A stretch of 64,000 bases of DNA. Origin: Dehalococcoidia bacterium. Lineage in GTDB: Bacteria; Chloroflexota; Dehalococcoidia; Bin125. The stretch spans positions 2,832,015 to 2,896,014 of the forward strand of contig OZ241913.1 of assembly GCA_965203775.1 (NCBI GenBank), given 5' to 3'. Position 1 is the stretch's first letter, and every line of letters begins with the position of its first letter. Positions 1-59,730 of the stretch are shown here, in pieces. The notes beneath the pieces were generated by a model. It made no database searches and was not told the DNA's origin. It saw only the letters and a list, made by a program, of their open reading frames with translations. The translations under genes and the position numbers were made by a program.

Positions 1-2
1 TC

Positions 3-137
3 GGCGGCAGCGACTGCCACGCGCTCCACGAAGTCGGCACCGCCGCCACAGAGTTCGAGCAGGAAATCCGCACGATGGCGGACTTGGTGGCCGCCCTCCG
101 CGAAGGCGCGCATCGCCCGATAGCCCTCCCTTACTAG
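3..137 (+). CDS. 3' end of a gene that begins upstream of the window (unknown product)
   Basis: Frame 3 is open from the window edge to a TAG at ~135-137. The peptide (...EVGTAATEFEQEIRTMADLVAALREGAHRPIALPY*) is non-repetitive and has coding-like composition. Confidence 0.3.
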   Translation, partial: GGSDCHALHEVGTAATEFEQEIRTMADLVAALREGAHRPIALPY

Positions 138-496
138 CGTCGCGCCCCGCCAGATTCAGCCCTCTGCGCCCGATTCATCACCCCGGCAAGGGGAGGTGAA
201 GGCGGGACGCGGCGAGTGGGCGACGACGGTGTTCAGATTTTGTTTTTTCGCGTGTTCGGAGGTGATTCGAGGGGCGGTCCTATCTGGTCGAGGGGCTTGG
301 CGATGTTCAGGTTTGTTCGGATTTGTTCGGGTTTGTTCGGAGGTGATTCGGGGGTGAACCGGCGTGGAGAGTCGCGCCTGGGGTGTGGGGCTGGGTGGGC
401 ATTGCTCGCACTTTCGTTCTGCTAGGGTATGGTAGCACGGTTGGGGGGAAGTGGGGGTTTGAGGGCGCGTCGGTTCCTGCCTGCGCAGGAATGACG

Positions 497-633
497 GAAG
501 TGCGAACAGGCCCGAAGTGCGAACAGGCCCGAAGCGCGAACAGGCCCGAAGCGCGAACAGGCCCGAAGTGTGAACAGGCCCGAAGTGCGAACAGGCCCGA
601 AGCGCGAACAAGCCCGAAGTGCGAACAGGCCCT
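497..633. repeat. Tandem repeat, 17-bp unit GCGAACAGGCCCGAAGY, ~8 copies, directly after a family-A repeat copy
   Basis: Read directly from 480-640: ...gaagtgcgaacaggcccgaagtgcgaacaggcccgaagcgcgaacagg.... It abuts the stop of the 632..1000 ORF. Confidence 0.85.
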
Positions 634-1000
634 AGGAGGGGGAGGGGATGCCGGGCTCCTCGTGGGTGAGGGTGAGGTGGATGGCGGCGCTGTTGGTTTC
701 GGGGTCGCGGTTGAGCTGGAACTCGCAGATCGTGCGGTCGGCGAGCTCCTTGAACTGGCGGTAGACCAGATCGGCGAACTCCTGCGAGACGGCGGAGTCG
801 GCGACGATGTTGAGGATGCTTTCGGCGGTGGCCGATGAGGCGGAGCTCCAGGCCCAGGCGGTGATGTCGGCGAAGGCGCGGAGCATCTCCTGGAGCTGGT
901 CCTCGCTGATCGTGAAGTGCTCTTCGTCCTCGTCCCAGGCGATCGTGAACTGCGCATCCGGCGCGCCGCCGGTTGCCGGCTGGGCGGGATCGTCGGCCAT
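632..1000 (-). CDS. hypothetical acidic protein (122 aa)
   Basis: ATG (cat at 998-1000) and TAG stop. The peptide is non-repetitive (MADDPAQPATGG...FTIAWDEDEEHFTISEDQLQEML...). It lies 16 bp downstream of the LLM oxidoreductase gene on the same strand. Confidence 0.45.
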   Translation of the reverse strand: MADDPAQPATGGAPDAQFTIAWDEDEEHFTISEDQLQEMLRAFADITAWAWSSASSATAESILNIVADSAVSQEFADLVYRQFKELADRTICEFQLNRDPETNSAAIHLTLTHEEPGIPSPS

Positions 1001-1015
1001 CGGCTCAGCCCCGCG

Positions 1016-1936
1016 CTACAGCTCGGGGGCGAGTTCGGCGAGGAAGGCGCGGGTGCGGGACTGCTCTTCCTCGCTGCCGAAGGCGGCGGCGCCGAAATCG
1101 GTCGCGCCGGCGTCGATCAAGCGGCGCAGCGACGCTTCCAGGCCCTCCTCGGTGCCGATCAGCGCGACATCGGCGGGATGCGCCGCGCCCTCGATGTCGA
1201 GCATCCCGCGGTAGGAGGGCAGGTTGCCGTAGTTGGCGAACTGGGCGGCTGCGGCCTCGCGGGCGGCGTCGGCGTCGTTGGTGAGCATGATCGGCAGGCC
1301 GACCACGATGCGCGGATCGGGCCGGCCGGCCTCGCGCGCGGCGGCGTTGATCGCCGGCGCGATGTGCGTCTCGACCGCTTTGGCGGCGGTCATCCAGAGG
1401 ATCGTGCCCTCGGTGCGCGCGCCGGCCAGCCGCAGCATCGCCGGGCCCATCGCCGCCAGCATGCAGTCGACCGGCTCCGCGTCCGCAATCTCCAGGAAGA
1501 GGTTGCCCTTGTACTGTTCGCCCTGATACTGCACGCGCTCGCCCGCGAGCAGCGGCAGCAGCACATCGAGATACTCCTTCATATGCCGCGCGGGGCGGTC
1601 AAACGACATCCCGAACATGCCCTCGATCACGACCGCGTGGGAGAGCCCGATGCCCAGCACGAAGCGGCGCCCGCCGCCTGCGGCCTGCACCGTCTTGGCC
1701 TGCTGCGCCATCGCGTGCGGGTGGCGCGGGTAGGTCGGCACGACCGCGGTCATCAGCTCGATCCGCTCCGTCTGCGCCGCGGCCAGCGTCAGCGCGCCCA
1801 TCGCGTCGTGCGAGAAGATGTTGGCCATCGCAAACGTGGCGAAGCCCTCGGCTTCCGCCGCGCGGGCGTCGGCCACCACATCGGTGACTTTGGCCGCGGG
1901 GCCGGTCGATCCGGTGAAGATGCCGATTTTCATTGC
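1016..1936 (-). CDS. LLM-class (luciferase-like) flavin/F420-dependent oxidoreductase
   Basis: Start chosen at MKIGIFTGS..., which is typical of the LLM family. The tracker ORF 1016..2074 has a low-complexity N-terminal extension that I did not include. Fold motifs: FATFAMANIF, GIGLSHAVV. Confidence 0.8.
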   Translation of the reverse strand, partial: AMKIGIFTGSTGPAAKVTDVVADARAAEAEGFATFAMANIFSHDAMGALTLAAAQTERIELMTAVVPTYPRHPHAMAQQAKTVQAAGGGRRFVLGIGLSHAVVIEGMFGMSFDRPARHMKEYLDVLLPLLAGERVQYQGEQYKGNLFLEIADAEPVDCMLAAMGPAMLRLAGARTEGTILWMTAAKAVETHIAPAINAAAREAGRPDPRIVVGLPIMLTNDADAAREAAAAQFANYGNLPSYRGMLDIEGAAHPADVALIGTEEGLEASLRRLIDAGATDFGAAAFGSEEEQSRTRAFLAELAPEL

Positions 1937-1979
1937 TGTGCTCCCGTCGTTTTGGGTCTGTGTGGTCGTGCCGGCGCGC

Positions 1980-2970
1980 TCAGGCGGGGCGGACGAGGAT
2001 GCGTCCGCGCACGCCGCCGGCGAGGATCTTGTTCGCGGCCTCGGGCACTGCTTCGAGCGAAATCCGCTCCTCAATCAGGTCCAGCAGCTTGCCGCTCGCG
2101 AAATCGTCCGCCATCCGCTGCCAGAGCGCGGCGCGGCGCTCCTGCGGGTAGTAGACGGACTCGATGCCAATCAGGCTGACGCCGCGCAGGATGAACGGCA
2201 TCACATTGGTCGCGACGGGCACGCCGCCGGTCAGCCCGGAGAGCGCCACCGCGCCGCCGTACTTGGTCTGCCGCAGGATCGACGCGGCGGTGCTGCCGCC
2301 GACCGGATCGACGGCGGCCGCCCAGCGCTCGGACTCCAGCGGGCGGCGGCTCTCTTCGGCCAGCTCGGCGCGATCCAGGATTTCCGACGCGCCCAGCTCG
2401 CGCAGGAAGTCGTGCGCGTCGGCCTTGCCCGTGCTGGCCGCGACGGTGTAGCCGCGCGCGGCCAGCATCGCCACGGCGGTCGAGCCGACCCCGCCCGTCG
2501 CGCCGCTGACGATCACGGGGCCGCTTTCGGGCGCGATCCCCGCGGCCTCGATCGCTTCAAGCGAGATCGCCGCGGTGAGCCCGGCGGTGCCCAACACCAT
2601 CGCCTCTTCCGCGCTCAGGCCCTCGGGCGCGGGCACGAGCCAGTCGGCGGGCACGCGCACGCGCTCGGCGTAGCCGCCTGCGTGCCCCGTGCCCAGCTCG
2701 TAGCCGGTCGCGATCACCGCGTCGCCGGCGCTGAAGCGGGCGTCGGACGATTCGACGACCGTGCCCGCGAAATCAATCCCCGGCACCATCGGGTAGGCGG
2801 TCACGACGCGCCCGTTGGGCGTGCAGGCGAGGCCATCCTTGTAGTTGAGGCCGGACCACTCGACGGCGACGGTCACCTCGCCGTCGGGCAGTTGGGCGTC
2901 GTCCCACTGCTCAACGCCGAGGCTGAAATCGTCGTCGCTCTTGTTGACCACGAAGGCGCGAAAGGCCACG
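1980..2970 (-). CDS. acuI: acrylyl-CoA reductase AcuI / YhdH-family NADPH:quinone oxidoreductase (MDR superfamily)
   Basis: Aligns along its full length with E. coli YhdH (VTVAVEWSGLNYKDGLA, PMVPGIDFAGTV, GATGGVGSTAVAMLAARGY, VMPFILRGVSLIGIDSV). Probable GTG start (VAFRAFVVNK) preceded by an aggggag RBS. The tracker N-terminal extension is low-complexity junk. Confidence 0.8.
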
Positions 2971-3030
2971 GGCGCACTCCCCTCAGGATCGCTCAGGCTG
3001 GCACAGGTCGGTACAGGTGGTTTGGGCGCA

Positions 3031-3846
3031 TCAGACGGGCCCAATCGGCGCGGGATGATGGGTGTGCGCCTCGTGCCCCGCGTGCAACTCGTGGCGCACG
3101 GCGACGCCCTCGGCGCTGAACTCGACGATCGTCGCCCCGCCGGAGTGGCGCGGCGCGCCGGGGTAGTAGGCCGGCACCGACCCGTCGCCCACGCCCTCAT
3201 GCACGTCGATGTGCCCCAGCGCCACGTAGTCGGCGTCGAGCCCCGCGATGTCGGCGGCGCGTATCTGGTAGGAGTAGCGCGACTCGCCTGTGCCGACGTA
3301 GTAGCCGTGGGCGATCGCGACGCGCCACAGATGCCGGTCGGGGTAGTGCCGCCAGGCGGGGCAGACCGCGGCCGGCGCGAAATCGTTGTAGCTCTCGTGC
3401 GCCTGCCCCCAGAACTGCACGCCGTGCTCATCCAGCACGACCAGCTCGCCCTCGGCGGAAGAGATGATGTGGACATTGGCCGGGAAGGCGTCGGGGAACT
3501 TGTCGTAGACGCCGTCGGGCATCGCCGGATCATGGTTGCCGGGCAGAATCACGACGGGCCGCCCGACGCCCGCCAGCAGCTCGCCGGTCGCCTCGACGTA
3601 GGGCCGCTTGACCCGCACGTGGTCGAAGAAGTCGCCCGCGATCACCACCACATCGACCTCGGCCTCTTTGCCCAGGTCCAGCACATGCTCAAAGGCGCGC
3701 AGCGCCGGCTCGAGCTCGCCGCTCTCGCGCCATGGCTCGGAGGTGTACGCGCCCAGATGCACATCGGAGGTGTGCAGCAGCCGCAGCGAATGCGCCGCCG
3801 CGCCGCCCCCAATGCGCTGGTGCGCCGGATACAAAGTGGTGGACAT
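3031..3846 (-). CDS. metallophosphoesterase (calcineurin-like/SbcD-like phosphoesterase)
   Basis: ATG (cat 3844-3846) gives MSTTLYPAHQR.... Motifs LHTSDVHLG, VVIAGDFFD and ILPGNHD are the classic metallophosphatase motifs I-III. Confidence 0.75.
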   Translation of the reverse strand: MSTTLYPAHQRIGGGAAAHSLRLLHTSDVHLGAYTSEPWRESGELEPALRAFEHVLDLGKEAEVDVVVIAGDFFDHVRVKRPYVEATGELLAGVGRPVVILPGNHDPAMPDGVYDKFPDAFPANVHIISSAEGELVVLDEHGVQFWGQAHESYNDFAPAAVCPAWRHYPDRHLWRVAIAHGYYVGTGESRYSYQIRAADIAGLDADYVALGHIDVHEGVGDGSVPAYYPGAPRHSGGATIVEFSAEGVAVRHELHAGHEAHTHHPAPIGPV

Positions 3847-3934
3847 GCAGGCTCGCGCTCCCCAGTCGCTCACGGCGTGCCGCGTGGGCTGCCCGCAGAG
3901 TAGCGGAGGGCCGTGTTTGGCGCGCGGGCGCTCC

Positions 3935-6900
3935 TTAATCGCGGTCGTTGCGGCGCTGGCTCTTTTCTCCGTCGTCGGTGAAGACGACGCGGGATTTCTT
4001 GCCGCCGTGGATTTGGGGTTCCCGGGCGAGCTTGCGGCGGAGCAGGTCAATGGGGCCGTCGGGCTCGCAGAGGGAGGCGGGCCGGCCGAGGACGTCGACG
4101 AGCAGGCGGCGGTCCAGCTCTGCGCGGGCCGGGCCTTCGTCGATCTGGTCGAACGGGAGGAAGCGGAACTCGCGCATCGCCTCGCACGCCTTGCGGGCGG
4201 CGGCGTGCTGCTCGTCGGTGAGCGCACGGGTGTCGAGCGTGGGAATGTTGGGAATTGAGGTGACGGTCACCGTACCGCGTCCGCTTTGCGACTTGTTCGA
4301 CGACCACCAGTACAAGAGCAGGCCGAGGGTGGAGTTGCACCAGAGCGAGAACGCGTACTCGTCGTCGCGGCGGGCGAAGACGACGGACGGCCAGGCGCGT
4401 CCGCCGATGCATGGACGGTCCGTCATCGCCACGACGAGCGAGTTGGCGTTGAACTGTAGGTCGCGGTTGACATGCGCGCGTGTGGCCGTCGCCCAGACCT
4501 GCTCCGCTTTCTGGTCGACTTCGGATTGCCGCTGCGGGAACGCCTTGACCTGCCCTTCTGAATCGCTCCCCACAGTGAGCGTCCGTTGCGCAGGGGAGTT
4601 GTGCGACCAGAGCATCGGGTAGGTTGGCACGGCGTTGTACGCCGGCTGCACAAGCTGAAACGGTCCGCGCGGCGAGCCGTCTTTCTGATCGCCGCGGATA
4701 TCCAGGTCGTAAGGTCCTCGCCCTGCAATTTCCCCGATCGGAACAATCGGCAGGGTCATGGATTCCGCAGCCGGCTCGGCCGGCAAGCGCAACAGCCCCT
4801 CCTCCAGAGCGCTCGCAGCGACGGCGAGGTCGAAATCACGGATTCCGGCGATCGGCCATGGTCCTCGTTCGGGCAACCTCGCGGCGATCATCTGGCCAAT
4901 GGCGTCGCCGCCGACGGCAAGCATCGGCTCTTGGATCGCCGCGGCATCGTCGACGGGCGCGGCGCGATCGTCAGCGACGGCGCGCGCGCGATCAATCGCC
5001 CGACCGACCTCAGAAGCCCACGCTTCACTGCGCGGGCGGTTTCGGAGCGCTACGAATGTCCCGCGCGGACGATCGGTCTCCGGCTTTCCCTTTCGCGCGA
5101 TCAGCAGACATTCCGCGATTCCGGTATCCGCAGAGAAGGATCGATCGCCAGATCCGGCGGCGGCGATGGTTACGACGACGATGTCGTGGCACAGGTCGGC
5201 GATAGCGCTCCGCGCTTTCTGCCATGCGCTGCCGCTCAACGCGCTGAGCGGCAGCACCATAGCAAGCGCGCCGTTCTCGCGGAGTTTGCGGAGCGCGAGG
5301 TCTGTGAAGTGGGAAGCCAGGCCGGCGTTGCCGTTGCCCAACCGTTGCTCGCCTGCGACGGCGAGCAGCCGGGCTTGCATGAGGTCGCGCACGTCGGGGG
5401 GCGTGTCGAACGCCGCAAAAGCGGGGTTCGCTACGCCGCGCAGCTCCGCTTCCTGGCCGCCTTGCCGAGTGAACGGCGGGTTCATAATCACGACATCGAA
5501 ACGGCCGTGTCCGATCCGCGACATGAGGTCGGTCACGTCTTCCGGGGCGTACCCACCGGACGTGACCGCGGTTGCGCGACGCAGCAGCCCGGCCTGAATG
5601 CCGTCGGCGAACAGGTCGAGCGAGCCGATGGCCACTCGCTCGCCGTCGAGCTCGTCGCTGAGCGCGCCGTAAGGCATCGTGAGCAAGCTGTCGCCGTTGA
5701 ACGGCGTCTCGGGGTGCGTGCTGGCGAGCATGGATGCGGTCAGGTGGACGGCGATGTTCAGGACATCGACGCCGACCAGGCCGGTCTGCATCATCGCGCC
5801 GTGCAACGCGGCAGGATCGCCTCCGTGCAGCTCGTGGAGTATTGACGTTCGTTGGTAGGCAGCGGCGAGCAGCGTGCCGGTTCCGCAGGCGAAGTCGGCG
5901 ATCTGCACTTCGCGCAGAGAATCCAGGTCGCCCCACTCAGCGCCGCGCGGGGCTCCCCGCGGCGGCAGGGCGAGGCTGGCGAGCAACACCGCCGCCTCCG
6001 GCCGGGTGTAGAATGTCGCCAGGAACTCGCGATCGGCGATCAGGCGCTGAAAAATCACTCCCGTGAGGTCGTGCGAGCGGGTCACGCCGCCCTGTACCAG
6101 CTCCGTCGCCGCATCCCAGAGCGGACCGAGCACCTGTCCGGCTGTCGCGGCGGGCAAGCGCCGCAGAATCGCCCTGGCGGCTGCGAAGATCGGCCAGTAG
6201 TTGACGTTCAGAATGCGCTGCCATTCATCGCTCAGCTCACCCAGGTGGAAGCGGTCGGCGTCCGCACGGAAATCGGAGAGCGGCGCGACGCCGCGCGATG
6301 CGCCGTCCGCGCCGCGCAGTGATTGGACGACCTGGAACGATGAGTCGGAGAGCGCGGCGTGAAAGATCAAGGCGTTGATCAGCACCGTCATCGCCATCCG
6401 TCTGGTCTGTCCCGCCTCGTCGTCCGTCTGGCCGAGCAGTGCGGCGATCTCGGCTCCGACCAACCCGGGCGACCGCGATGGCAGACGCAGCATGAAGCGA
6501 TTCGCTGCCGTTCTGATGCCCTGCTCGAGAATCTCGCTCAGACGTTGCACGTGTTGAGCCGGGACTGAGGCGCGATGAATGAGCATCGCCAGGTCGCGCG
6601 CTGAACCGCGCAGCCAGCCCGAACTCGGAAGCCGCTCAACTGTCCCGCCCGCCGCATCCGTGTAGAGCGCGTATTCGAGCGCGTCGCTGGCTGCCAGGGC
6701 GGCGCGGATTTGGGGGCCGCCGGTCTGCTCGCGCGCATCGGGCGGGTAGACGAGCGCCACGGCGCTCTCGATTGGGCGGCCGGTCTGGTGGACAATTTCG
6801 CCGAGGCGGGCGAGCGCGTCGGTTTCCGCAGCGGCGTGGTTCTCGCGCTCGGCTTCGATCACGACCGGCCAGCCGGCGGGTTCCTCGATCAGGATGTCGG

Positions 6901-7021
6901 GCCGGGCGGTCGTGTTGCGCAGGGTGCGCTGGTGCTCGGCGAGCACACGCCAGCTGGTCGGGCGGAGCTCCTGGAGGACCTCGCCGAGCTGGACATTGGT
7001 GGTGTCTTCGCGGGCCCGCAT
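3935..7021 (-). CDS. large gamma-class N6-adenine DNA methyltransferase-domain protein (~1028 aa), type IIG/IIL-like restriction-modification protein with N- and C-terminal extensions
   Basis: Motif X-like [27 protein letters not shown], motif [11 protein letters not shown], motif [10 protein letters not shown], then a post-catalytic [21 protein letters not shown] helix and a ~450-aa C-terminal TRD-like region. N-terminal segment [19 protein letters not shown] may be a degenerate PD-(D/E)XK. Start set at MRAREDTT (cat 7019-7021). The 1598-aa tracker ORF runs antisense through gatB and its first ~570 aa are spurious. Confidence 0.7.
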
Positions 7022-7108
7022 GGGGGACAGTGTAGCGGGTTTGGGGCGGTGCGGGAACGGACGTTCGGAGTCGCTGCTCAGATGCGCGCGAGTCGTAGAC
7101 TGTTCGGC
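7022..7108. promoter_or_regulatory. divergent intergenic region between the MTase-domain gene and gatB (probable divergent promoters)
   Basis: An 87-bp gap between divergently oriented starts. No motif was identified with confidence. Confidence 0.25.
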
Positions 7109-8620
7109 ATGACCACAGACACCGCAACCACCGCCGCCGCTGACTGGGAAACCGTGATTGGGCTTGAGGTCCACGCCCAGCTGCGCACTGAGAGCAAGAT
7201 GTTCTGCCGCTGCCCGGCCGACTACGCCGCGGCCGCGCCCAACACCTACGTCTGCCCGCTCTGCCTGGGCATGCCCGGCACTTTGCCCGTGATCAACCGC
7301 ACCGCCGTCGAGTGGACGATCCGCACCGCGCTCGCGCTCAACATGCGCATCCCCGAACTCTCCAAGTTCGACCGCAAAAACTACCCCTACCCCGACCTGA
7401 TGAAGGGCTACCAGATTTCGCAATACGACATGCCGCTCTCCGAGGGCGGCTGGATGGATGTCGAGACCGACGACCTGGGCCGCCAACGGATCGGCATCAC
7501 GCGCGTCCACCTCGAGGAGGACACCGCGCGGCTGCTGCACCGCGAGAGCGAGGCCGGCGAGCGCTTCTCGCTGGTCGACGTCAACCGCTCCGGCACGCCG
7601 CTGATGGAAATCGTCTCCGAGCCCGACATGCGCTCGCCCCAGCAGGCGCGCCAGTATCTGGTGCAGCTGCGCCAGATGCTGCGCTACCTGGGCGTCTCGA
7701 CCGCGGATATGGAGAAGGGCTCGTTCCGCTGTGACGCCAACGTCTCGCTGCGACGCCCCGGCGCGGCGGAGTTGGGCGCAAAGGTCGAGATCAAGAACAT
7801 GAACTCGTTCCGCAGCGTGCAGCGCGCGCTGGAGTTCGAGCAGTCGCGCCAGGCCGCCGCGCTCGAGGCGGGCGAGCTGATCGCGCAGGAGACGCGCGGC
7901 TGGGACGAAGAGGCGCAGATCACCGTCTCGCAGCGCTCCAAGGAGGAGGCGCACGACTACCGCTACTTCCCCGAGCCGGACCTGCCGCCGCTGCAGACCA
8001 GCCGCGCGACGGTCGAGGCGATTCGCGCCGCGCTGCCCGAGCTGCCCGCCGCCCGCCGCGCCCGCTTCGAGGCCGACTACGGGCTGCAACCGTTCGAGGC
8101 GGGGCTGCTCACCGAAGAGCCCGCGCCCTCGGAGTGGTTTGAAGCGTCGGTCGCCTCCTTGGGTGGCAAACAGGGGGACGGGAGCGCGGACGGGCTGCCG
8201 CGCATGATCGCGACCTGGTTCGTCGGCGAGCTGACCCGGCTGATGCACGAGGCCAAGCCGCCCGACACGCTGGACACGATCCGCGTGCAGCCCGCGCAGC
8301 TGGCCGGGCTGGTGCGGCTGATCGACGACGGAAGCATCAGCAACACCCAGGCCAAGGAGGTTTTCGCCGAGATGTACGCCTCGGGCGAGGACGCGGCTGC
8401 CGTCGTCGAGCGGCTCGGCGTCGCGCAGATTTCGGGCGAGGACGCGCTCGCGCCGATCATCCGCCAGGTGCTCGAGGAGCAGCCGCAGGCCGCGGCCGAC
8501 TACCGCGGCGGCAAGCCGGAGGCGCTGAAGTTTCTGGTCGGCCAGACAATGCGGCTGAGCCGCGGCCAGGCCAACCCCGCGCAGGCCTCCGAACTGCTCC
8601 GCGCCGCGCTCGAGGAGTAG
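7109..8620 (+). CDS. gatB: Asp-tRNA(Asn)/Glu-tRNA(Gln) amidotransferase subunit B
   Basis: MTTDTA...[13 protein letters not shown]...FCRCP...[15 protein letters not shown]...[11 protein letters not shown]... is a full-length GatB signature and includes the C-terminal YqeY-like tail. TAG stop at 8618-8620. Confidence 0.9.
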
Positions 8621-8627
8621 AGCGAGT

Positions 8628-11537
8628 ATGGCCGCGCAGCCGACCCAGACGACGATGACGATCGAGCCGTCGATGAGCGTCGACGAGTTCGTTGCCAAGT
8701 GGCGCAACGCGGCGCCGCGCGAGCGGGCCAACTCGCAAACTCACTTCAACGATCTCTGCGCCGTGCTCGACGTCGCCACGCCCGTCGAGGAAGACCCCAG
8801 CGGCGAGAGCTACACATTCGAGAAGCACGTCGATCTGCCCGGCGGCGGCAGCGGCGACGCCGATGTCTGGAAGCGCGGGCACTTCGGCTGGGAGTACAAG
8901 TCGGGCGGCAAGAGCCTCAGCGTCGCCTACGAGCAACTGCTGGGCTACCGCGAGGGGCTGGAGAACCCGCCGCTGCTCGTGGTCTGCGACATGAACCGCT
9001 TTGAAATCCATACCAACTTCACCAACACCGAGCCGCGCGTGATCGAGTTCACGCTCAAGCACCTGGAAGAAAATCCCACCCACTACATTCGGCTGCTGCG
9101 CGAGGTGTTTCTCGATCCCGAAGCGCTGCACCCGAATCGCGACCCGCGCTATATCACCGAAACCGCCGCAGCAAAGTTCGGCGAGGTGGCCGAGGCGCTG
9201 CGCGAGCGCGACGGGCACGACCCGGCGCTTGTCGCCCGCTTCCTCAACCGAATCATCTTCTGCTTCTTCGCCGAAAGCGTCGGCCTGTACCGCAATCTGC
9301 GCGGGGCAATCGAGAAGCCGGTCACCGATGTGTTCGACAACATGTCGGCCGACGCGACGCTGTCCAAACGGATCGTGGGGCAACTCTTCGAGGCGATGGC
9401 GGAACGCGACGTGCGCAACTTCGGCGCCTACTACATCCGCTGGTTCAACGGCGGCCTGTTCGACGAAACGGCGGTGCCCGAGACGTTGCAGCTGACGGGC
9501 GATCTGGCGCAGATCATCAACGAGACGGCGGAGTTGAACTGGTCGCGGGTGGATCCGGCGATCTTCGGGACGCTGTTCGAGCGCGGGCTGGATCCCAAGC
9601 GCCGCTCGCAGCTGGGCGCGCACTACACCGATCCGGACAACATCATGCGCGTGGTCGAGCCGGTCGCGCTGCGCCCCCTGCGCCGCGAATTCGACGCGCT
9701 GCGCGCCGAACTCGCGCCCGAACACAGGCTCGAAGACGCGCCGCCGCCCGGTTACGGCGAGAACAGCGCGCTGGCTTTCGAAGCGCCCGACCCCGACTCC
9801 CCCGCCGGGCGCATCCACGCCTTCCACCAACGCCTCGCGGCGGTGCGCGTGCTCGACCCCGCCTGCGGCTCCGGCAACTTCCTCTACATCGCAATGCGCG
9901 AGCTGAAAAACCTCGAACAGGAACTGATCGAGTGGGCGCAGCGCCTGGGCGTCAACGGCTTGCAGCGCCGCATCGGCCCCCAAAACATGCTCGGCATCGA
10001 TATCGACCCGTTCGCCGCCGACCTCACCCGTATGTCGCTCTGGATCGGCTACATCCAGTGGAACATCGAGCGAAACATCGACACCACCCGCGACCCCGTC
10101 CTCGGCCGCGCCGAGCAAATCGAATGCCGCGACGCCATCCTCGCCGAGGATGAGGAGGGCAACCCCATCCCCGCAGAGTGGCCCGAAGCGGAGTTCGTCG
10201 TGGGGAATCCGCCGTTTCTGGGCGGAAACCGATTACGCCGCGAGAGCGGCAATGCGTACGTTGACCGTCTTCAATCTGCCTACGCCAACGCCGTAGGCGG
10301 ACAAGCCGACCTTTGCGTCTATTGGCACGAGAGCGCTCGACGACAGATCGAGCAGCGCGCCACCCGCGCTGCTGGCCTCCTTGCCACGAACAGCATAGGC
10401 CAACCGTACAACCGCAAGGTCCTCGAGAACATCGCATCATCGGGAGGCATGTTCTTCGCGTGGCGTGATGAGCAGTGGTTCGACGACGGTACTGCCGTCC
10501 GCATTGCCATCGTCGGCCAAGACGACGGCAGCGAATCGGAACTCGAGCTCGACGGATCGCCAGTCGCCAAGATCAACCTCGATCTGACCGCAGGCGTCCC
10601 GGTTGCGTCAGCTGTGGAACTGGCTGAAAATTCCTCTATCGCGTTTCGGGGTGTTGGGCCTGCTGGACCATTTGACATCTCCTGGACCATTGCCGGGCGC
10701 ATGCTGGCGCGTCCCGTCAACGTGAATGGACGCCCGAATTCCGATGTGGTGATCCCGTTCGTCAACGCTCAAGACCTGGCGCAGACACGGCGGGGACAGC
10801 ACGTCATCGACTTCGGTCAGAGTACATCTATCGAAGACGCGGCTGACTATGAGGAGCCGTTCGAGTACGTGAGGCGACACGTTCTGCCGCGCCGCAAGCG
10901 CAGCAGGAACGACCAACTGCGCAACCAATGGTGGCTCCACGAGGCTTGGCGTCCCGGGATGCGCAAGGCGATCCAGCCGCTCAGTCGCTTCATTGCCACG
11001 CCAGTGACTTCCAAGCACCGCTTCTACGTGTGGCTGGATGCTGGCACACTGCCTGCCAGCTCAGTCAACGTCATAGCTCGTGACGACGACTACATATTCG
11101 GGGTTCTGCACTCGCGAATCCACCACGTTTGGGCTCTTGCGCAGGCAACACGCCTCGGTGTCGGGCCAGCAGACTCCCGCTACATCCACACTCGGTGCTT
11201 CAACACATTTCCGTTCCCTTGGCCACTGACGGCGTCCAACGATGATCTTACGGCCACTCAGCGACGGCAGCACAAAGCGATCTCCGCCGCGGCTGCATCG
11301 TTGGACGCAGCACGCACCCAATGGCTTAACCCCAGTGATGCGCCAGCGGAGCTCGTGCAAGAGCGCACGATGACCGACCTCTACAACGACACCGAAAAAG
11401 ATCCTCGCCCAAAGTGGCTGACCAACAGGCACCAGGCGATCGACAAAGCAGTGGCAGCCGCCTACGGCTGGCCCGCCGACCTGCCGGATGATGAAATCCT
11501 GTCCCGCCTGCTAGCCCTGAATCTGGAGCGCGCCTGA
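8628..11537 (+). CDS. MmeI-family type IIL restriction-modification enzyme (fused PD-ExK nuclease + gamma N6-adenine MTase + TRD), 969 aa
   Basis: Colinear with MmeI: nuclease D..EYK (HVDLPGG...FGWEYKSGGK vs MmeI VDLFW...LIEMKSRG); helical region (RIIFCFFAESVG); motif X (PAIFGTLFERGLDPKRRSQLGAHYTDPDNI vs PAIFGSLFQSIMDAKKRRNLGAHYTSEANI); motif I (VLDPACGSGNFL); motif IV (VVGNPPFLGG); C-terminal TRD. The start lies 8 bp after the gatB stop. Confidence 0.85.
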   Translation: MAAQPTQTTMTIEPSMSVDEFVAKWRNAAPRERANSQTHFNDLCAVLDVATPVEEDPSGESYTFEKHVDLPGGGSGDADVWKRGHFGWEYKSGGKSLSVAYEQLLGYREGLENPPLLVVCDMNRFEIHTNFTNTEPRVIEFTLKHLEENPTHYIRLLREVFLDPEALHPNRDPRYITETAAAKFGEVAEALRERDGHDPALVARFLNRIIFCFFAESVGLYRNLRGAIEKPVTDVFDNMSADATLSKRIVGQLFEAMAERDVRNFGAYYIRWFNGGLFDETAVPETLQLTGDLAQIINETAELNWSRVDPAIFGTLFERGLDPKRRSQLGAHYTDPDNIMRVVEPVALRPLRREFDALRAELAPEHRLEDAPPPGYGENSALAFEAPDPDSPAGRIHAFHQRLAAVRVLDPACGSGNFLYIAMRELKNLEQELIEWAQRLGVNGLQRRIGPQNMLGIDIDPFAADLTRMSLWIGYIQWNIERNIDTTRDPVLGRAEQIECRDAILAEDEEGNPIPAEWPEAEFVVGNPPFLGGNRLRRESGNAYVDRLQSAYANAVGGQADLCVYWHESARRQIEQRATRAAGLLATNSIGQPYNRKVLENIASSGGMFFAWRDEQWFDDGTAVRIAIVGQDDGSESELELDGSPVAKINLDLTAGVPVASAVELAENSSIAFRGVGPAGPFDISWTIAGRMLARPVNVNGRPNSDVVIPFVNAQDLAQTRRGQHVIDFGQSTSIEDAADYEEPFEYVRRHVLPRRKRSRNDQLRNQWWLHEAWRPGMRKAIQPLSRFIATPVTSKHRFYVWLDAGTLPASSVNVIARDDDYIFGVLHSRIHHVWALAQATRLGVGPADSRYIHTRCFNTFPFPWPLTASNDDLTATQRRQHKAISAAAASLDAARTQWLNPSDAPAELVQERTMTDLYNDTEKDPRPKWLTNRHQAIDKAVAAAYGWPADLPDDEILSRLLALNLERA

Positions 11538-11586
11538 CGATCCAGGACCCATGTGTTCCGCCAGCCACACTGTCTCACTTTGACGA

Positions 11587-12654
11587 TCAGGCAGGCTGCC
11601 GCTGATCTCTAATCGTCCAGCTCTCCACATAGGCGCGGGTGTCCGATTCCAAATGGACGACAAGTTCGCCATTATCGTTGAGGTAGCACCCACCATCCAG
11701 ATCACGGTGTACTCGCCCGCCTACCAGGCTGCCATCGTGGCATTCGCTGGCGGCTTGCAAGACATGTTGCTCGTATCCGGTGAGCCAGCCAGAGTCCTTA
11801 GTTCTGTGGGCCGCAGCAAAGCGGGTCGCGATAGCCCAGCAACCTGGCGTTTCGTAGTTGAAGGGATGGAAGGGCCGTTCGCGAATCTTGCCGAATCCAG
11901 GAGATTCGCCAATCTCGCGTAGGTCGACTGCCCAAGCTGGAACGACATCAGTAGGGTGCTCTAGGCTGGGAAATGAGAGCGAGTAAGAAGAGCGCTTCGC
12001 CGCCACCAAGATGAACATGTCCGGGATACAGTCAAACTGCTCCAAGCGTGCATCGACGGGGTTCGAGTTAACAGCAAGGTCGCGGAACTGACCGTCCGCA
12101 CTAAGCTTGATGGGGTTGAAGCGGTGGGTCTTGCGAAGCCTCCCGTGCCCACAAAAGAGCGCAAGCTCTTCTTGAGTACGGTTCCAAAACAGGTACTCTG
12201 CTGGTTCCGTGGCCCAGTCAAGCAAGTTCTCGTCGAGATTCATGTCGTCGTCGTCGTCCTTTGACATGAATACGTGCGGCCTATTCGGAGACCGATCCAG
12301 ACGTGGCTCGCTGTGGCGATTGTCACCGAGTACCACTCGATAGTCCGTCGCCAGATGCGTTTCCGGCGCAGGGCTAGAATGGCGATACTCGTTCACTGCC
12401 CGAACGGTCACCACAACCTCAGCAGGATCAACATCCGGTACTCGTACGACTACCGCGTGGTAGGTGTATCCCCAATGCACACGCTCGTTCGGAACGTCAC
12501 ACCAGTCGTCCTGTACTCCGTTGACGCGAAGGCGGATGCTGTACCCGAGTAAGCGACCGCCGACTGGCTTGTTCCAGAACACGAGCTGGTGCTTTCCATC
12601 AATCGCGCGAGCGCGCAGATTGCGGATAACCGGGCGAACCTTCGTGATATCCAC
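11587..12654 (-). CDS. hypothetical protein, FN3-like N-terminal segment plus unknown ~250-aa domain, low-GC gene
   Basis: A 355-aa ORF convergent with the type IIL gene. GC is ~52-55% against ~70% background. The peptide is non-repetitive and contains an acidic DDDDD linker. Confidence 0.55.
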   Translation of the reverse strand: MDITKVRPVIRNLRARAIDGKHQLVFWNKPVGGRLLGYSIRLRVNGVQDDWCDVPNERVHWGYTYHAVVVRVPDVDPAEVVVTVRAVNEYRHSSPAPETHLATDYRVVLGDNRHSEPRLDRSPNRPHVFMSKDDDDDMNLDENLLDWATEPAEYLFWNRTQEELALFCGHGRLRKTHRFNPIKLSADGQFRDLAVNSNPVDARLEQFDCIPDMFILVAAKRSSYSLSFPSLEHPTDVVPAWAVDLREIGESPGFGKIRERPFHPFNYETPGCWAIATRFAAAHRTKDSGWLTGYEQHVLQAASECHDGSLVGGRVHRDLDGGCYLNDNGELVVHLESDTRAYVESWTIRDQRQPA

Positions 12655-12990
12655 CTATCCGCCCTTTTCGGTTGAAGACTCAGAGTCGAGGCAGGCGGGT
12701 GTCGTATCGGCTACCGACGCGCGCAGCCCCGGCATCATCTCCTCCGGCGTCTTCCCCGTCAGGTCGAAATACACCCGGTCGGGGCAGATATCGAGCTCGT
12801 CGCTCCAGCCGATCGCGCGAAACGGTGTGATGTGAACCCGCTCGAAGAACGCTCGGTCCTCCCAGACTTTGAAGACGCCCCGGCCCGCCACATCGCTCAG
12901 GTCGACCTCGCCGGAAGCGCCGTCGTCGTACTCGACGTAGATGCGGTAGCCCTCGCGCGGCTCGACCTTGAGCAGTTTCGGCATCGCCAT
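12655..12990 (-). CDS. DUF2442 domain protein
   Basis: VEPREGYRIYVEYDDGASGEVDLSD...GVFKVWED...FERVHI...AIGWSDELDICPD is the DUF2442 consensus. ATG at 12990. Confidence 0.75.
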   Translation of the reverse strand: MAMPKLLKVEPREGYRIYVEYDDGASGEVDLSDVAGRGVFKVWEDRAFFERVHITPFRAIGWSDELDICPDRVYFDLTGKTPEEMMPGLRASVADTTPACLDSESSTEKGG

Positions 12991-13031
12991 AGTGTCCCCA
13001 GTCTAGCGCGCCGCTGCCAAAGCGGCAGAGT

Positions 13032-13334
13032 TCAGGCATCGACAGGCTGCGCGCGCAGCCCCGGCATCATCTCCTCGGGCGTCTTGCCGGTCAGCCGGAA
13101 GTAGACGGCGTCCGGGCAGATATCGAGCTCGTTGCCCCACCCAATCGCACCGTCCTCCGTGATGTGGACTCGCTCGAAGACGCCCGGTTCATCCCAGACT
13201 TTGAAGACGCCTTTGCCGGCGTTGTGGCTCAGGTCGACCTCGCCGCAGGCGCCGTCGTCGTATTCGACGTAGATGCGGTAGCCCTCGCGGGGCTCCACGC
13301 GGATTGGTTCGGGCATCGGAGCGTCTATGTCCAT
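13032..13334 (-). CDS. DUF2442 domain protein (tandem paralog)
   Basis: ~80% identical to the 12655..12990 protein at both peptide and DNA level. An alternative start at 13316 gives MPEPIRVEP. Confidence 0.75.
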   Translation of the reverse strand: MDIDAPMPEPIRVEPREGYRIYVEYDDGACGEVDLSHNAGKGVFKVWDEPGVFERVHITEDGAIGWGNELDICPDAVYFRLTGKTPEEMMPGLRAQPVDA

Positions 13335-13354
13335 GGTGCTGCCAGTGTAGCGCG

Positions 13355-14380
13355 TCAGCTGCGGGAGCGGCCGGTGGCGCGGGCGACGTGAATCACCTGC
13401 GGGGTGTTCTGGAACGTTTCGACGCCGACCTCGGCGAAGATTTGGTTGACGCCGTTGCGGATCTCGTCGGTCAGCTTCCAGTCGGTCGCGGCGACGTTTT
13501 CCTCGAGTTCCTGCTCGTTGCGCATGCCGACCAGGGCGCAGCTGACGGCGGGGTGGTCGAGCACCCAGGCGATGGCGAGTTGGGCGACGGTTTTGCCGTA
13601 GCCGTCGGCGAGTTCGGCGAGTCGGTTGGCGACTTCGACCTCTTTGACGAACTGCTCGCGCTCGAACAGCGGCAGTTCAAAGGCCATCCCGGAGCGGCTG
13701 CGCCAGTCGCCCTCGTCGAACGTGGTGTCGGGCGTGAACGCGCCGGTCAACAGCCCGAAGGCGAGCGAGCCGTAGGCCATGTAGCCGATGCCGTTGGCCT
13801 GGCACCAGGGCAGCACGCGCGATTCCATGCGCCGGTCGAACATGTGGTAGCCGACCTGGTTGGCGGCGATGTGCCCGTACTGCTCGCACTCCTGCATCAT
13901 GTCGATGTTGAAGTTGGAGACGCCGTAGTGGCGGATTTTGCCGTCCTGCTTGAGCTGCTCGAGCGCGCCGATCGACTCTTCGAAGGGCGTGTCGTGATCG
14001 GGCCAGTGGATCAGCATCAGGTCGATCACGTCGGTCTTGAGCCGGCGCAGGCAGCCTTCGGTGCGCTCGATGATGTAGTCGCGGGTCGCGTTGAGCCCGG
14101 CCACCGCGCCGCCCTCGTCGTATTGGAAGCCGACTTTGGTGACGAGCACGATTTCGTTGCGGCGCGAGCCGAGCGCGTCGGCGAGCAGCTCTTCGGAGTG
14201 GAAGGGGCCGTAGATCTCGGCGGTGTCGAAGAGGGTGATGCCGCGGTCGATGGCGGCGTTGACCGCGCGGGCGGCCTCGCCGACGTCGATGTGGCCGTAC
14301 ATCGTGGTGCTCATCTCCCAGGTGCCGAAGCCGACCGCTGAGGCCGTGAGGTCGGTGTCGCCGAATTGCCGCTGCTCCAT
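13355..14380 (-). CDS. aldo/keto reductase
   Basis: MEQRQFGDTDLTASAVGFGTWEM..., GITLFDTAEIYG, LIHWPD, HYGVSNF are AKR family signatures. Start set at MEQRQ (the tracker ORF extends 18 codons upstream). Confidence 0.85.
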   Translation of the reverse strand: MEQRQFGDTDLTASAVGFGTWEMSTTMYGHIDVGEAARAVNAAIDRGITLFDTAEIYGPFHSEELLADALGSRRNEIVLVTKVGFQYDEGGAVAGLNATRDYIIERTEGCLRRLKTDVIDLMLIHWPDHDTPFEESIGALEQLKQDGKIRHYGVSNFNIDMMQECEQYGHIAANQVGYHMFDRRMESRVLPWCQANGIGYMAYGSLAFGLLTGAFTPDTTFDEGDWRSRSGMAFELPLFEREQFVKEVEVANRLAELADGYGKTVAQLAIAWVLDHPAVSCALVGMRNEQELEENVAATDWKLTDEIRNGVNQIFAEVGVETFQNTPQVIHVARATGRSRS

Positions 14381-14532
14381 CGTGTCCCTCGCAAATCCAG
14401 ACTGCGTGCCGCCCGCGCGCCGTTCGCCGGGCAAGTACGCCAGTCTAGCCGCTCGGCCGAGCTTGCGTGAGGCTTGAGCTCGCTCGCCGCGGGCGCTACC
14501 GTGTTGTGTGGCGGGCGCATATAGTGTCGCAG

Positions 14533-15882
14533 ATGTCTCATTTGCCGGATCGCAGCATTCGCAAGTGGCTGGTCCCCGGGCTCGGCGTGAAGCGCTGGTT
14601 CCTGCTGCTGTTCGTCGGCACGGGGCTGCTCGGCTTGGGCGTGGCGTTCCTGCTGCGCGAGCTGTACGTGTCGGCGACGCTGCCGGACGCCTTCTACTAC
14701 ATCACCCTCCAGTTTCTGCCCTACGCGGCGCGCGGCGCGGTGCTGATCGGCGTGGCGCTGCTCTGCGTCGGCGTCGGCGTCTGGAAGTTCACCTCGCACG
14801 CGGTGGCGGCCGCCCGCAGCTCGGGCAACGGCGACCGCGACGAGCCGCTGGTCGAGCTGATCCACCGCTACCGCTTCTCCGGACGCGGCCCGCGAATCGT
14901 CTGCCTGGGCGGCGGCACCGGGCTCTCCGTGCTGCTGCGCGGGCTCAAGGAGTACAGCGACAACATCACGGCGATCGTGACGGTGGCGGACGACGGCGGC
15001 TCGTCGGGCCGGCTGCGGCGCGATCTGGGCGTGATCGCGCCGGGCGACCTGCGCAACTGCATCGCCGCGCTGGCCGACGCCGAGCCGCTCATGACGCGGC
15101 TGTTCCAGTACCGCTTCCCGGAAGGCTCCGGCGAGGGACTCGAGGGGCACTCGTTCGGCAACCTGTTCATCGTCGCGATGTCGGGCGTCGCCGGGGGGAT
15201 GGAGGAGGCGATCCGCGAGACCGGCCGCGTCCTGGCGGTGCGCGGGCGCATTTTGCCCTCAACGCTGGAGAACATCCGCCTGGCGGCGCTGACCAACGAC
15301 GGCGAGGTGATTCGCGGCGAGTCGAAGATCACCTCGGCCAAGCAGCAGATCCAGCAGCTCAGCCTGGAGCCGCAGCAGCCGCCCGCCTACCCGGACACGG
15401 TCAACGCGATCCGCAACGCCGACGTGATCGTGGTCGGGCCCGGCAGCCTCTACACCAGCGTGCTGCCCAACCTGCTCGTGCCGCAGCTGCGGATCGCCTT
15501 CCAGGAGTCGCAGGCGATGAAGATCTACGTCTCGAACGTGGCCACGCAGCCGGGCGAGACGGACGATTTCAGCGTGCAGGATCACGTGCGGACGATCGCC
15601 GAGCACATCGGCGGCACGCCGTTTGACCTGGTGCTGGCCAACAGCAACGCGTCGGCCCGCCTGCCGCGCCGCTGGCGCTCGGAGCCCGTCCAGCTCGACG
15701 CCGGCGAGGAGCTCGACGAGTTCGACGGCGCGGCGATCATCGAGGCCGACATCGTCGACACCGGCAACCGCTATCGCCACGACTCGGAGAAACTCGCGGC
15801 AGCGATTCTGACCGCGTACCATGAGCAGGGCGAGGCCGGCCTTCGCCCGCGCCGCGCGCAGCGGCTGGTCGCGGCCAAGTAG
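14533..15882 (+). CDS. YvcK/CofD-like gluconeogenesis factor (UPF0052, 2-phospho-L-lactate transferase fold) with N-terminal transmembrane segments
   Basis: GGGTGLSVLLRGLK, VTVADDGGSSGRLR, DLRNCIAAL, GPGSLYTSVLPNLLVP are YvcK/CofD motifs. ATG at 14533 (MSHLPD). Confidence 0.8.
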   Translation: MSHLPDRSIRKWLVPGLGVKRWFLLLFVGTGLLGLGVAFLLRELYVSATLPDAFYYITLQFLPYAARGAVLIGVALLCVGVGVWKFTSHAVAAARSSGNGDRDEPLVELIHRYRFSGRGPRIVCLGGGTGLSVLLRGLKEYSDNITAIVTVADDGGSSGRLRRDLGVIAPGDLRNCIAALADAEPLMTRLFQYRFPEGSGEGLEGHSFGNLFIVAMSGVAGGMEEAIRETGRVLAVRGRILPSTLENIRLAALTNDGEVIRGESKITSAKQQIQQLSLEPQQPPAYPDTVNAIRNADVIVVGPGSLYTSVLPNLLVPQLRIAFQESQAMKIYVSNVATQPGETDDFSVQDHVRTIAEHIGGTPFDLVLANSNASARLPRRWRSEPVQLDAGEELDEFDGAAIIEADIVDTGNRYRHDSEKLAAAILTAYHEQGEAGLRPRRAQRLVAAK

Positions 15883-15943
15883 CGCCGGCCGGTATGCTGG
15901 CGAGTATGCCGGCAACGCGCCGACAAGCAGGGGCGGGAGTGCG

Positions 15944-16168
15944 ATGAGCAGCTCGGAAATCCTCAACGTGTTTCAGATCTTCGTCGCGCTGCTCGTGATC
16001 GCGGCGGTGGTGATGCAGGCCAAGGGCGCCGGCCTGGGCAACATCTTCGGCGGCGCGGGCGGCGACGGCTACCGCACCCGACGCGGCATCGAGCGCACCC
16101 TGTTTCGCGGCACGATCGCGCTGATGCTGGTCTTCGTCGGACTCTCGATCGCGGCGGTGCGGCTCTGA
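15944..16168 (+). CDS. secG: preprotein translocase subunit SecG
   Basis: A 74-aa protein, MSSSEILNVFQIFVALLVIAAVVMQAKGAGLGNIFGG...; the MQxKG(S/A)GLG motif identifies it. TGA at 16166-16168. Confidence 0.8.
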   Translation: MSSSEILNVFQIFVALLVIAAVVMQAKGAGLGNIFGGAGGDGYRTRRGIERTLFRGTIALMLVFVGLSIAAVRL

Positions 16169-29955: not shown

Positions 29956-30099
29956 CCACGCTCCTCACACCGGCCGGCGCCGCATCGGGGCAACGCCGGC
30001 TGTACGGCAGACTCAGGCAGGATACAGCATCCCCGCCAGGCAGGCGCAACGCGCCAACTCCACTATGTCCGCAGGCTACAGCCCCAATCGGCAGCCCCC

Positions 30100-33665: not shown

Positions 33666-33688
33666 TGCGCGTGTAGGGAGGCATTGCC

Positions 33689-59469: not shown

Positions 59470-59730
59470 TTAATCGAGCGGGGCGATCTTGCCCGGGAGC
59501 TGGTTGCGCGAGGCGCGCTCCCAGGCGGCGCGCAACTCTGCTTGCCGCTCGGACGCCCACTTGAGCACTTGCGCTTGAACGCGCGGCGGCAGCCGGCCGT
59601 GCAGCACTTCCGGATTTGCGATGCTGACCCGCGCTTCGGCCTCGGCGTAGCGCACATGAATATGCGGCGGCGCATGGTCGCCGCAGAGCATCGTGATCAC
59701 GATGCCGTTGAAGCGGCAGAGCTCAGGCAT
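59470..59730 (-). CDS. DUF4160 domain protein
   Basis: MPELCRFNGIVITMLCGDHAPPHIHVRYAEAEA matches the DUF4160 consensus (FxGIxIxMxxxDHxPPHxHVxY). Confidence 0.75.
   Translation of the reverse strand: MPELCRFNGIVITMLCGDHAPPHIHVRYAEAEARVSIANPEVLHGRLPPRVQAQVLKWASERQAELRAAWERASRNQLPGKIAPLD

Follow-up and report, generated by a model that had tools for sequence, protein, structure and literature searches.

The subject of this study is a group of three adjoining genes in a 64-kb stretch of the genome of a Dehalococcoidia bacterium (contig OZ241913.1, positions 2,832,015 to 2,896,014; the whole stretch is called the window below): gatB, which encodes subunit B of the Asp/Glu-tRNA amidotransferase, and the two large genes of restriction-modification (RM) type that flank it (Table 1). 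This layout had been proposed in an earlier reading of the letters alone (the sequence-only reading), and Pfam, NCBIfam and PADLOC identified all three genes as claimed. The gatB product matches the NCBIfam GatB equivalog NF004012 with 625.8 bits (cut-off 338), as well as Pfam GatB_N (7e-117) and GatB_Yqey (1e-38), and has both its catalytic domain and its tail. Divergent from gatB, with 87 bp between them, lies the gene for a protein of 1028 amino acids (aa) that we call bigMT. On the other side, a gene for an MmeI-family type IIL enzyme follows gatB at once, as had been noted, although the distance from the gatB stop codon (TAG, 8618-8620) to its ATG (8628) is 7 nt and not the 8 bp first given. 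A GAGGAG sequence stands within the final gatB codons, about 10 nt before this ATG, and the short gap, which is conserved at 6-28 nt in related loci, suggests that the two genes are probably co-transcribed; a scan of positions 3700-13400 for promoter and terminator consensus sequences gave nothing either way, being uninformative for such a high-GC Chloroflexota-type genome. The G+C content of the window is about 68-70%. At third codon positions (GC3) it is 0.93 in gatB, 0.81 in bigMT and 0.80 in the MmeI-like gene, which points to a foreign origin of both RM genes. No further copy of bigMT or of the MmeI-like gene was found in the window.

Table 1. Features of the gatB locus, with positions in the window (MTase, methyltransferase; TRD, target recognition domain; ORF, open reading frame).
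Feature	Position	Strand	Basis
bigMT, 1028-aa type IIG-like single-chain RM candidate	3935-7021	-	single ORF, GC3 0.81, weak MTase Pfam matches
bigMT aa 1-150, PD-(D/E)xK-type nuclease-like domain	6572-7021	-	domain model, conserved acidic residues
bigMT aa 155-330, all-helical connector	6032-6559	-	helices 155-328 in AlphaFold2 model
bigMT aa 340-600, gamma-class N6-adenine MTase core	5222-6004	-	Pfam and PADLOC matches, motifs I and IV
bigMT aa 600-845, most variable segment, putative specificity-determining part (TRD)	4487-5224	-	allele identity 39-48%
bigMT aa 846-1028, conserved C-terminal region, including the '[14 protein letters not shown]' element	3938-4486	-	conservation 0.8-0.9 in 50 homologues
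bigMT-gene-sized indel, 3242 bp	3870-7111		116 bp stand there in L037
gatB, Asp/Glu-tRNA amidotransferase subunit B, housekeeping	7109-8620	+	NCBIfam and Pfam matches; fixed anchor of the locus
Complete MmeI-family type IIL RM enzyme, 969 aa	8628-11537	+	four MmeI Pfam domains, PADLOC, PDB 5HR4
Exchanged C-terminal half of the MmeI-like enzyme, aa ~531-969 (MTase end, TRD, C-terminal helices)	10230-11537	+	comparison with L037
Variable cargo gene, 355 aa	11587-12654	-	GC3 0.64; slot 3' of the MmeI-like gene

The MmeI-like gene is an ordinary member of its family in an unusual, stable operon position. Its product matches all four Pfam domains of MmeI above their cut-offs (MmeI_N, 2e-13; MmeI_hel, 6e-10; MmeI_Mtase, 6e-32; MmeI_TRD, 1.5e-9), the PADLOC model REase_MTase_IIG with 836 bits and the structure of MmeI itself (PDB 5HR4) with an E-value of 6e-51. 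The catalytic residues of MmeI, D70, E80 and K82 (PMC4833311), stand in an element D70...E80-M-K82 that aligns with D78...E89-Y-K91 of the window's enzyme, and both motif I (DPACGSG, from aa 410) and motif IV (NPPF, at aa 527) are intact. In the MmeI family, a single TRD steers two activities, methylation of an adenine in the recognition site of the enzyme itself and cleavage some way off (PMC2731913, PMC4833311), and MmeI-type enzymes modify one strand only (PMC2731913). Typical members of the family cut about 20 nt from the site and need no second MTase gene. No small companion MTase lies beside the MmeI-like gene in the related loci L034, L036-L039 and L041. Its counterpart in the closest relative, L037, shares 99% of residues with it in the stretch aa 1-530 but about 55% in the remainder, from aa 531 onwards; the two agree completely as far as aa 520, and the similarity breaks down just past NPPF. 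This pattern indicates that recombination at NPPF exchanged the distal part of the MTase, the TRD and the C-terminal helices.

How the locus has changed over time can be followed in ten orthologous gatB loci from other assemblies, eleven with the window, whose gatB proteins are 72-98% identical to that of the window (percentages below refer to this identity) and which share a metallophosphatase...aldo/keto reductase-CofD synteny. Neither RM gene is present in L040 (72%), an empty site with the order metallophosphatase-gatB-aldo/keto reductase-CofD-SecG-Fmt-RlmN, or in L035 (81%), where the genes past gatB are unrelated. The order gatB-MmeI is found in L041 (74%), L036 (75%), L034 (84%) and L037 (98%), the last without bigMT in spite of being the closest relative, and the order bigMT-gatB-MmeI in L038 (90%), L002 and L003 (both 91%) and L039 (94%). 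The MmeI-like gene thus occurs in nine of the eleven loci, bigMT in five. Since it is present so widely, and with a gap of 6-28 nt from gatB in all eight related loci that carry it, the MmeI-like gene is best seen as an old, widely kept resident that looks operon-fused to gatB. By the same comparison, bigMT appears to be a patchy and more recent insertion into the metallophosphatase-gatB intergenic region of about 115 bp. The DNA on both sides matches L037 closely, window 1-3869 corresponding to L037 6085-9911 (94.8%) and window 7112-10230 to L037 10028-13143 (97.6%). At the junctions there is no terminal repeat or target duplication, only 7-mers at the level expected by chance and no longer shared repeat, and no transposase, integrase or other mobility mark accompanies the insertion. 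The sequence-only reading had treated a like gatB context without RM genes in close relatives as a sign of mis-annotation; such loci exist, L040 and L035, and what they indicate is insertion. Its suggestion of an RM island inserted around gatB holds as far as insertion goes, though not as a single event: the loci point to one insertion on either side of gatB, the two being independent and differing in age.

Full-length homologues share the initiator Met of bigMT and so back its start codon. Its Pfam matches are weak, although above threshold, for Eco57I (25.4 bits, cut-off 25.3) and N6_Mtase (22.1 bits, cut-off 20.4), and its PADLOC matches, likewise weak, are to methyltransferase models, the best being mad2 (26.6 bits), with PglX at 15 bits and the type IIG model at 13 bits. 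NCBIfam, including its PglX model for the bacteriophage exclusion (BREX) system and its MAD2 model, returned no family at E <= 0.01. Searches of PDB chains by sequence, with the single protein and with a 50-sequence profile, gave non-significant matches only (motif I of BrxX, E 0.33; DrdV, 0.89). An AlphaFold2 model built on 50 homologues reached a predicted local distance difference test score (pLDDT) of 75.8 and a predicted TM-score (pTM) of 0.75. Its best Foldseek match in the PDB is BpuSI (4e-14), aligned over the whole length, and its second is PglX/BrxX (7e-12); both alignments reach into the C-terminal part of bigMT. The next matches are CamA, DrdV (type IIL), LlaBIII (type ISP) and M.BseCI. 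Every one of the leading matches by fold is either a DNA adenine MTase or an RM enzyme, a result that speaks against a non-DNA methyltransferase, the outcome that the sequence-only reading had wanted checked. The MTase fold, which may extend to about aa 660, contains motif I (DFACGTG, aa 376-382) and motif IV (NPPF, aa 514-517); D376, F377, C379, G380, T381 and N514-P515-P516-F517 are invariant in the 50 homologues. The ratio of non-synonymous to synonymous substitution rates (dN/dS) is 0.15-0.17 for the whole of bigMT, which indicates that the gene is kept by selection; it is 0.21-0.23 for the N-terminal domain and 0.05-0.07 for the MTase core, the most constrained part, and 0.08-0.11 for gatB.

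Modelled alone, the N-terminal domain reaches a pLDDT of 88.6 and has an alpha-beta-beta-beta-alpha-beta core, with E14 in helix 1, D42 just ahead of strand 2 and E56-A-E58 in strand 3. In the 50 homologues E14, D42 and E56 are invariant and E58 is nearly so, making these four residues, in the light of the model and of their conservation, candidates for a catalytic site. The pattern PD...E-x-E is retained in homologues of 33-37% identity, apart from L027, which has E-N-K instead, and the canonical form PD...E-G-K is present in the plasmid homologues of Aminobacter sp. MSH1 (pUSP4) and Sulfuricystis multivorans (pSTJ1). The top Foldseek matches of this domain, none of them significant, are nearly all PD-(D/E)xK nucleases (Hjc, R2 endonuclease, Bax1, AdnA, AF1548, EndoMS, McrC). 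The view of the N-terminus (PDILIEE...VVIEAER) as a PD-(D/E)xK remnant, put forward in the sequence-only reading, gains support from the topology of the model, the conservation of the motif and the E-x-K of distant homologues, and a PD-(D/E)xK fold is likely. An active E-x-E site is found in BamHI, and by analogy that of bigMT may have nuclease activity as well.

The segment that follows the MTase core is where bigMT alleles differ most. Against the alleles that L002, L003 and L038 carry in this position, aa 600-845 are 39-48% identical, compared with 72-85% at both ends of the protein, and neither L002 nor L003 has DNA that aligns with window 4498-5232. The '[14 protein letters not shown]' element of the C-terminal region is retained in distant and plasmid homologues, and it may resemble the 'LNS...' element known from TRDs of other type IIG and of type I enzymes. 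Together with the change past NPPF in the MmeI-like enzyme, these comparisons suggest that specificity regions have been swapped in both RM genes. Whole alleles of bigMT seem to move too. Between the window and L039 the synonymous divergence (dS) is 0.11 for bigMT (3935-7021 versus 6827-9913), far below the 0.40 of the adjoining gatB (7109-8620 versus 10001-11527), which suggests a recent horizontal replacement of the bigMT allele. The same pair has a common bigMT allele (92-98% identical throughout the regions examined) and different MmeI alleles (68, 49 and 61% in three regions), so the alleles of the two genes assort independently. Moreover, a copy of window 3919-7081, that is of the bigMT gene alone, stands at another chromosomal site, L001 of contig OZ251529.1, with 89.6% DNA identity. 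On that contig L001 occupies 2194284-2217370 and the gatB locus L003 1977776-2000826. The aldo/keto reductase-CofD-RlmN block, which in the window and L002 lies next to the gatB locus, is found there about 4.5 kb from another bigMT copy (91% allele) and about 200 kb from L003; judged from this gene order, OZ251529.1 has undergone a rearrangement with a breakpoint near a bigMT paralogue.

Homologues of bigMT number more than 3000; the best 120 listed are 970-1058 aa long, 55-98% identical and nearly all full-length. In an exhaustive profile search with a limit of E <= 1e-30, the representatives of clusters formed at 50% identity numbered at least 1508, and the majority spanned positions 1-1000 of the profile. 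Every name on the homologues listed is 'hypothetical protein', with the exception of one distant plasmid homologue named 'N-6 DNA methylase', and none of the Pfam, NCBIfam or PADLOC models tried calls bigMT a restriction enzyme. The protein represents a new, large and unnamed sequence family that most likely belongs to an established kind of enzyme, the type IIG-like one. The carriers are metagenome-assembled genomes (MAGs) of Dehalococcoidia, Acidimicrobiia, Arenicellales, Alphaproteobacteria and 'Ca. Porisulfidus', the last of which is named in a sponge metagenome report, and many of them appear from their names and sample types to be associated with sponges or marine hosts. Several paralogues can share a genome, four in OZ251529.1 and three in OZ251457.1. 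In the Hyphomonadaceae MAG OZ253505.1 (L024), three paralogues stand head-to-tail (6803-9727, 10001-12874 and 13151-16081). The frame is broken in L015, L026 and L028, into ORFs of 452-551 aa, and one cluster also includes fragments of 274, 290 and 407 aa that share a contig; either such copies have become pseudogenes or the breaks stem from long-read indel errors. Distant homologues (27-40% identity) are carried by plasmids of Aminobacter sp. MSH1 (pUSP4, L042), Sulfuricystis multivorans (pSTJ1, L043) and Nitrosospira sp. NRS527 (pNRS527-2, L044, 40% identical), where the neighbours are a zincin-like metallopeptidase and DUF5710 (pUSP4), PRTRC genes (pSTJ1) and a type IV secretion system with its coupling protein (pNRS527-2).

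We consider it fairly probable that a self-contained RM gene encoding a single polypeptide settled at each end of gatB, the two at different times, that bigMT is a second type IIG-like enzyme and that the three genes do not form a system. The MmeI-like gene would be the old resident, transcribed probably from the gatB promoter, whose specificity would have changed when everything past motif IV (NPPF) was replaced by a diverged allele. The bigMT gene would have arrived later as a gene-sized insertion between the metallophosphatase gene and gatB. Its protein is predicted to consist, in this order, of a PD-(D/E)xK-type domain, a helical connector, a gamma-class N6-adenine MTase, a variable TRD-like region and a conserved C-terminus, an architecture with which it would methylate host DNA and cut unmodified DNA by means of one shared recognition module. 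Direct observation covers the identity of the genes, the order of the domains, the conserved motifs, purifying selection, the distribution among relatives, the want of a constant partner and the mosaic alleles, whereas co-transcription with gatB, cleavage by the E-x-E site, DNA methylation, the recognition sequences and a part in defence are inferred.

This architecture has close parallels among known enzymes. In BpuSI (type IIG, PDB 3S1S) a single chain begins with a PD-(D/E)xK endonuclease and continues with a helical connector, a gamma-class MTase and a TRD, which is the layout predicted for bigMT; the two are 10% identical, with TM-scores of about 0.3 because their domains are placed differently, and BpuSI has E-x-K where bigMT has E-x-E. 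MmeI (PDB 5HR4) has the same order of parts: endonuclease (1-155), spacer (156-300), MTase (301-620), TRD (621-825) and helices (826-919) (PMC4833311), its spacer being positioned like the helical connector of bigMT (aa 155-330). By sequence, however, bigMT is not a member of the MmeI family: Pfam found no MmeI_N, MmeI_hel, MmeI_Mtase or MmeI_TRD domain in it. We also considered whether it might be a diverged MmeI paralogue, and rejected this; an hhalign comparison with the window's MmeI-like protein aligned 64 columns around motif I with a probability of 7%. Distinctive features of the window's own MmeI-like gene are its operon-like association with gatB and the exchange of its post-NPPF half between close strains. 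Both RM genes here are mosaic at the recognition region, as are the specificity-shuffling mobile RM genes in which TRDs undergo 'domain movement' in Helicobacter pylori (PMC3983042). The presence/absence polymorphism of bigMT and its near-identical copy at another locus are further points in common with those genes, whereas its insertion without transposase, integrase, terminal repeat or target duplication is not.

Several observations weigh against this reading. The methyltransferase Pfam scores of bigMT barely exceed their thresholds, and the AlphaFold2 model has a pLDDT below 50 at aa 415-460 and 479-530, in and around the catalytic core. The isolated N-terminal domain has no significant Foldseek match in the PDB (best E 0.11), a search of 16 N-terminal domains of the family at E <= 10 found no Pfam nuclease family bar one weak HSDR_N match, and bigMT has a Glu at the position of the canonical nuclease Lys. 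All five gatB loci with bigMT (the window, L039, L038, L002 and L003) also hold the MmeI-like gene, and the short gap is the sole backing for the presumed co-transcription of that gene with gatB.

The doubts about the N-terminal domain are the starting point of the alternative that survives best, although we still regard it as unlikely: bigMT would be a solitary DNA adenine methyltransferase with an epigenetic or anti-restriction role, its nuclease-type domain being dead and serving in DNA binding or regulation. The canonical (D/E)xK Lys is indeed a Glu in most family members, but the E-x-E site of BamHI is active, and the invariance of E14, D42 and E56, with purifying selection on the domain at a dN/dS of 0.21-0.23, speaks against a dead site. 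The distant plasmid homologues, one of which is annotated only as 'N-6 DNA methylase', adjoin conjugation or establishment genes, and anti-restriction methylases are typical of such plasmid regions; however, the homologues in plasmid context are the very ones that keep the canonical E-x-K. The fold matches of bigMT include the orphan methyltransferase CamA and the methylase-only PglX, as this account would have it, but the presence of multiple diverged paralogues per genome and of a variable TRD-like region fits a diversifying defence better.

A functional pairing of bigMT with the MmeI-like enzyme, for second-strand or same-site protection or as competing, mutually exclusive RM systems, is far less probable still. 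It would explain why bigMT at gatB is always accompanied by the MmeI-like gene, and the single-strand modification by MmeI-type enzymes (PMC2731913) makes an extra methylase conceivable. Against this, the MmeI-like gene stands without bigMT in four loci (L037, L034, L036 and L041), and the association does not extend to bigMT elsewhere. When one genome per species was scanned for neighbours within 10 kb, a MmeI homologue accompanied bigMT in 2 of 31 loci, the orthologous L002 and L003 only, leaving it alone at the 29 others, and all-against-all clustering of the ORFs of the 31 loci and the window revealed no conserved partner gene. The paralogues in L032 and L033 likewise stand by themselves, surrounded by genes for thiolase, CoA-transferase, P450, tRNA synthetase and the like. 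In addition, the two RM genes are divergent with gatB in between, their variable regions have been exchanged independently, as L039 shows, and their profiles are similar at motif I only. The sequence-only reading had offered bigMT as the protecting methylase of the type IIL enzyme, a role we set aside because bigMT loci elsewhere have neither a MmeI gene nor a common neighbour and because bigMT has a nuclease-type domain of its own; we likewise found no supporting evidence for the combined or antagonistic RM pair that it had also considered.

Least probable of all is that bigMT is the MTase or specificity subunit of a multi-gene system, whether BREX (as PglX), the methylation-associated defence system MADS (as MAD2) or the defence island system associated with restriction-modification, DISARM, with its partners elsewhere: the structural match to PglX/BrxX at 7e-12, the weak PADLOC scores for mad2 and PglX and the profile match to motif I of BrxX speak for it, but no BREX, MADS or DISARM partner gene lies within 10 kb in the window, L032 or L033, no gene cluster is common to the 31 bigMT loci, NCBIfam with its PglX and MAD2 models found no match, and to our knowledge PglX has no N-terminal PD-(D/E)xK domain. 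PglX/BrxX (PDB 8C45, 9EWZ) is a large gamma-class MTase with a C-terminal TRD, as bigMT is predicted to be, and shares the motif I region with it, whereas bigMT has the nuclease-type N-terminal domain in addition. PglX acts only with other BREX proteins, none of which is found near bigMT. The candidate identity as a BREX PglX was rejected on the missing NCBIfam match, the PADLOC score of 15 bits and the housekeeping and metabolic character of the neighbours.

Going beyond the colonisation of gatB by two independent RM genes, one can imagine, although we think it rather doubtful, that the whole bigMT family consists of single-chain RM enzymes with a BamHI-like PD...E-x-E nuclease, which spread as bare gene-sized cassettes, lacking any recognisable mobility gene, into intergenic DNA beside housekeeping genes, possibly in a homing-like manner by their own nuclease, and mostly in MAGs from presumed sponge or marine hosts. 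In L031, from a distant Dehalococcoidia MAG, a bigMT homologue (9932-13000, +; 34% identical) lies 1.6 kb from a gatB gene (14596-16104, -) that is 55% identical to that of the window, in an arrangement that differs from the one described here; this could be a coincidence or a recurrent hotspot.

A few other features of the region may be recorded. The slot 3' of the MmeI-like gene varies between loci: in the window it holds the 355-aa cargo gene, in L037 an unrelated ORF of 300 aa and in L038 a gene for an ApeA_NTD1 protein, and DUF2442/DUF4160 arrays are found in it too. The cargo gene of the window, markedly lower in GC3 (0.64) than the genes beside it, has no Pfam match, no PADLOC match and no DNA match among the related gatB loci, and a comparison with the cargo of L037 and L038 in the same slot showed it to be unrelated to both. 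Three DUF2442 paralogues are present in the window (12655-12990, 13032-13334 and 59726-59995, all on the minus strand), the first two in tandem and adjoining the RM locus; relatives have arrays of two or three DUF2442 genes, interleaved with DUF4160 in L039, and DUF2442/DUF4160 may be a toxin-antitoxin-like pair. Farther away, the large high-GC3 ORFs 33677-37249 (+, 1190 aa) and 62370-63998 (-, at least 542 aa) have no Pfam match at E <= 0.001, and Big_1 is the sole domain of ORF 26629-29964 (-).

The identification of gatB as a bystander in this locus places it outside any defence system; it marks the chromosomal site where RM genes landed. If the bigMT family is indeed one of RM enzymes, its members would be left out of model-based RM counts, and defence inventories built on the Pfam, NCBIfam and PADLOC models would miss these genes as RM enzymes. 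The series of gatB loci also provides a clean natural case of specificity change by recombination at NPPF in an MmeI-type enzyme, and the swap of the whole post-NPPF half may merit thought when the specificities of such enzymes are engineered. Finally, since plasmid homologues are carried by cultured hosts (Nitrosospira sp. NRS527, Aminobacter sp. MSH1 and Sulfuricystis multivorans), the bigMT family is open to experiment.

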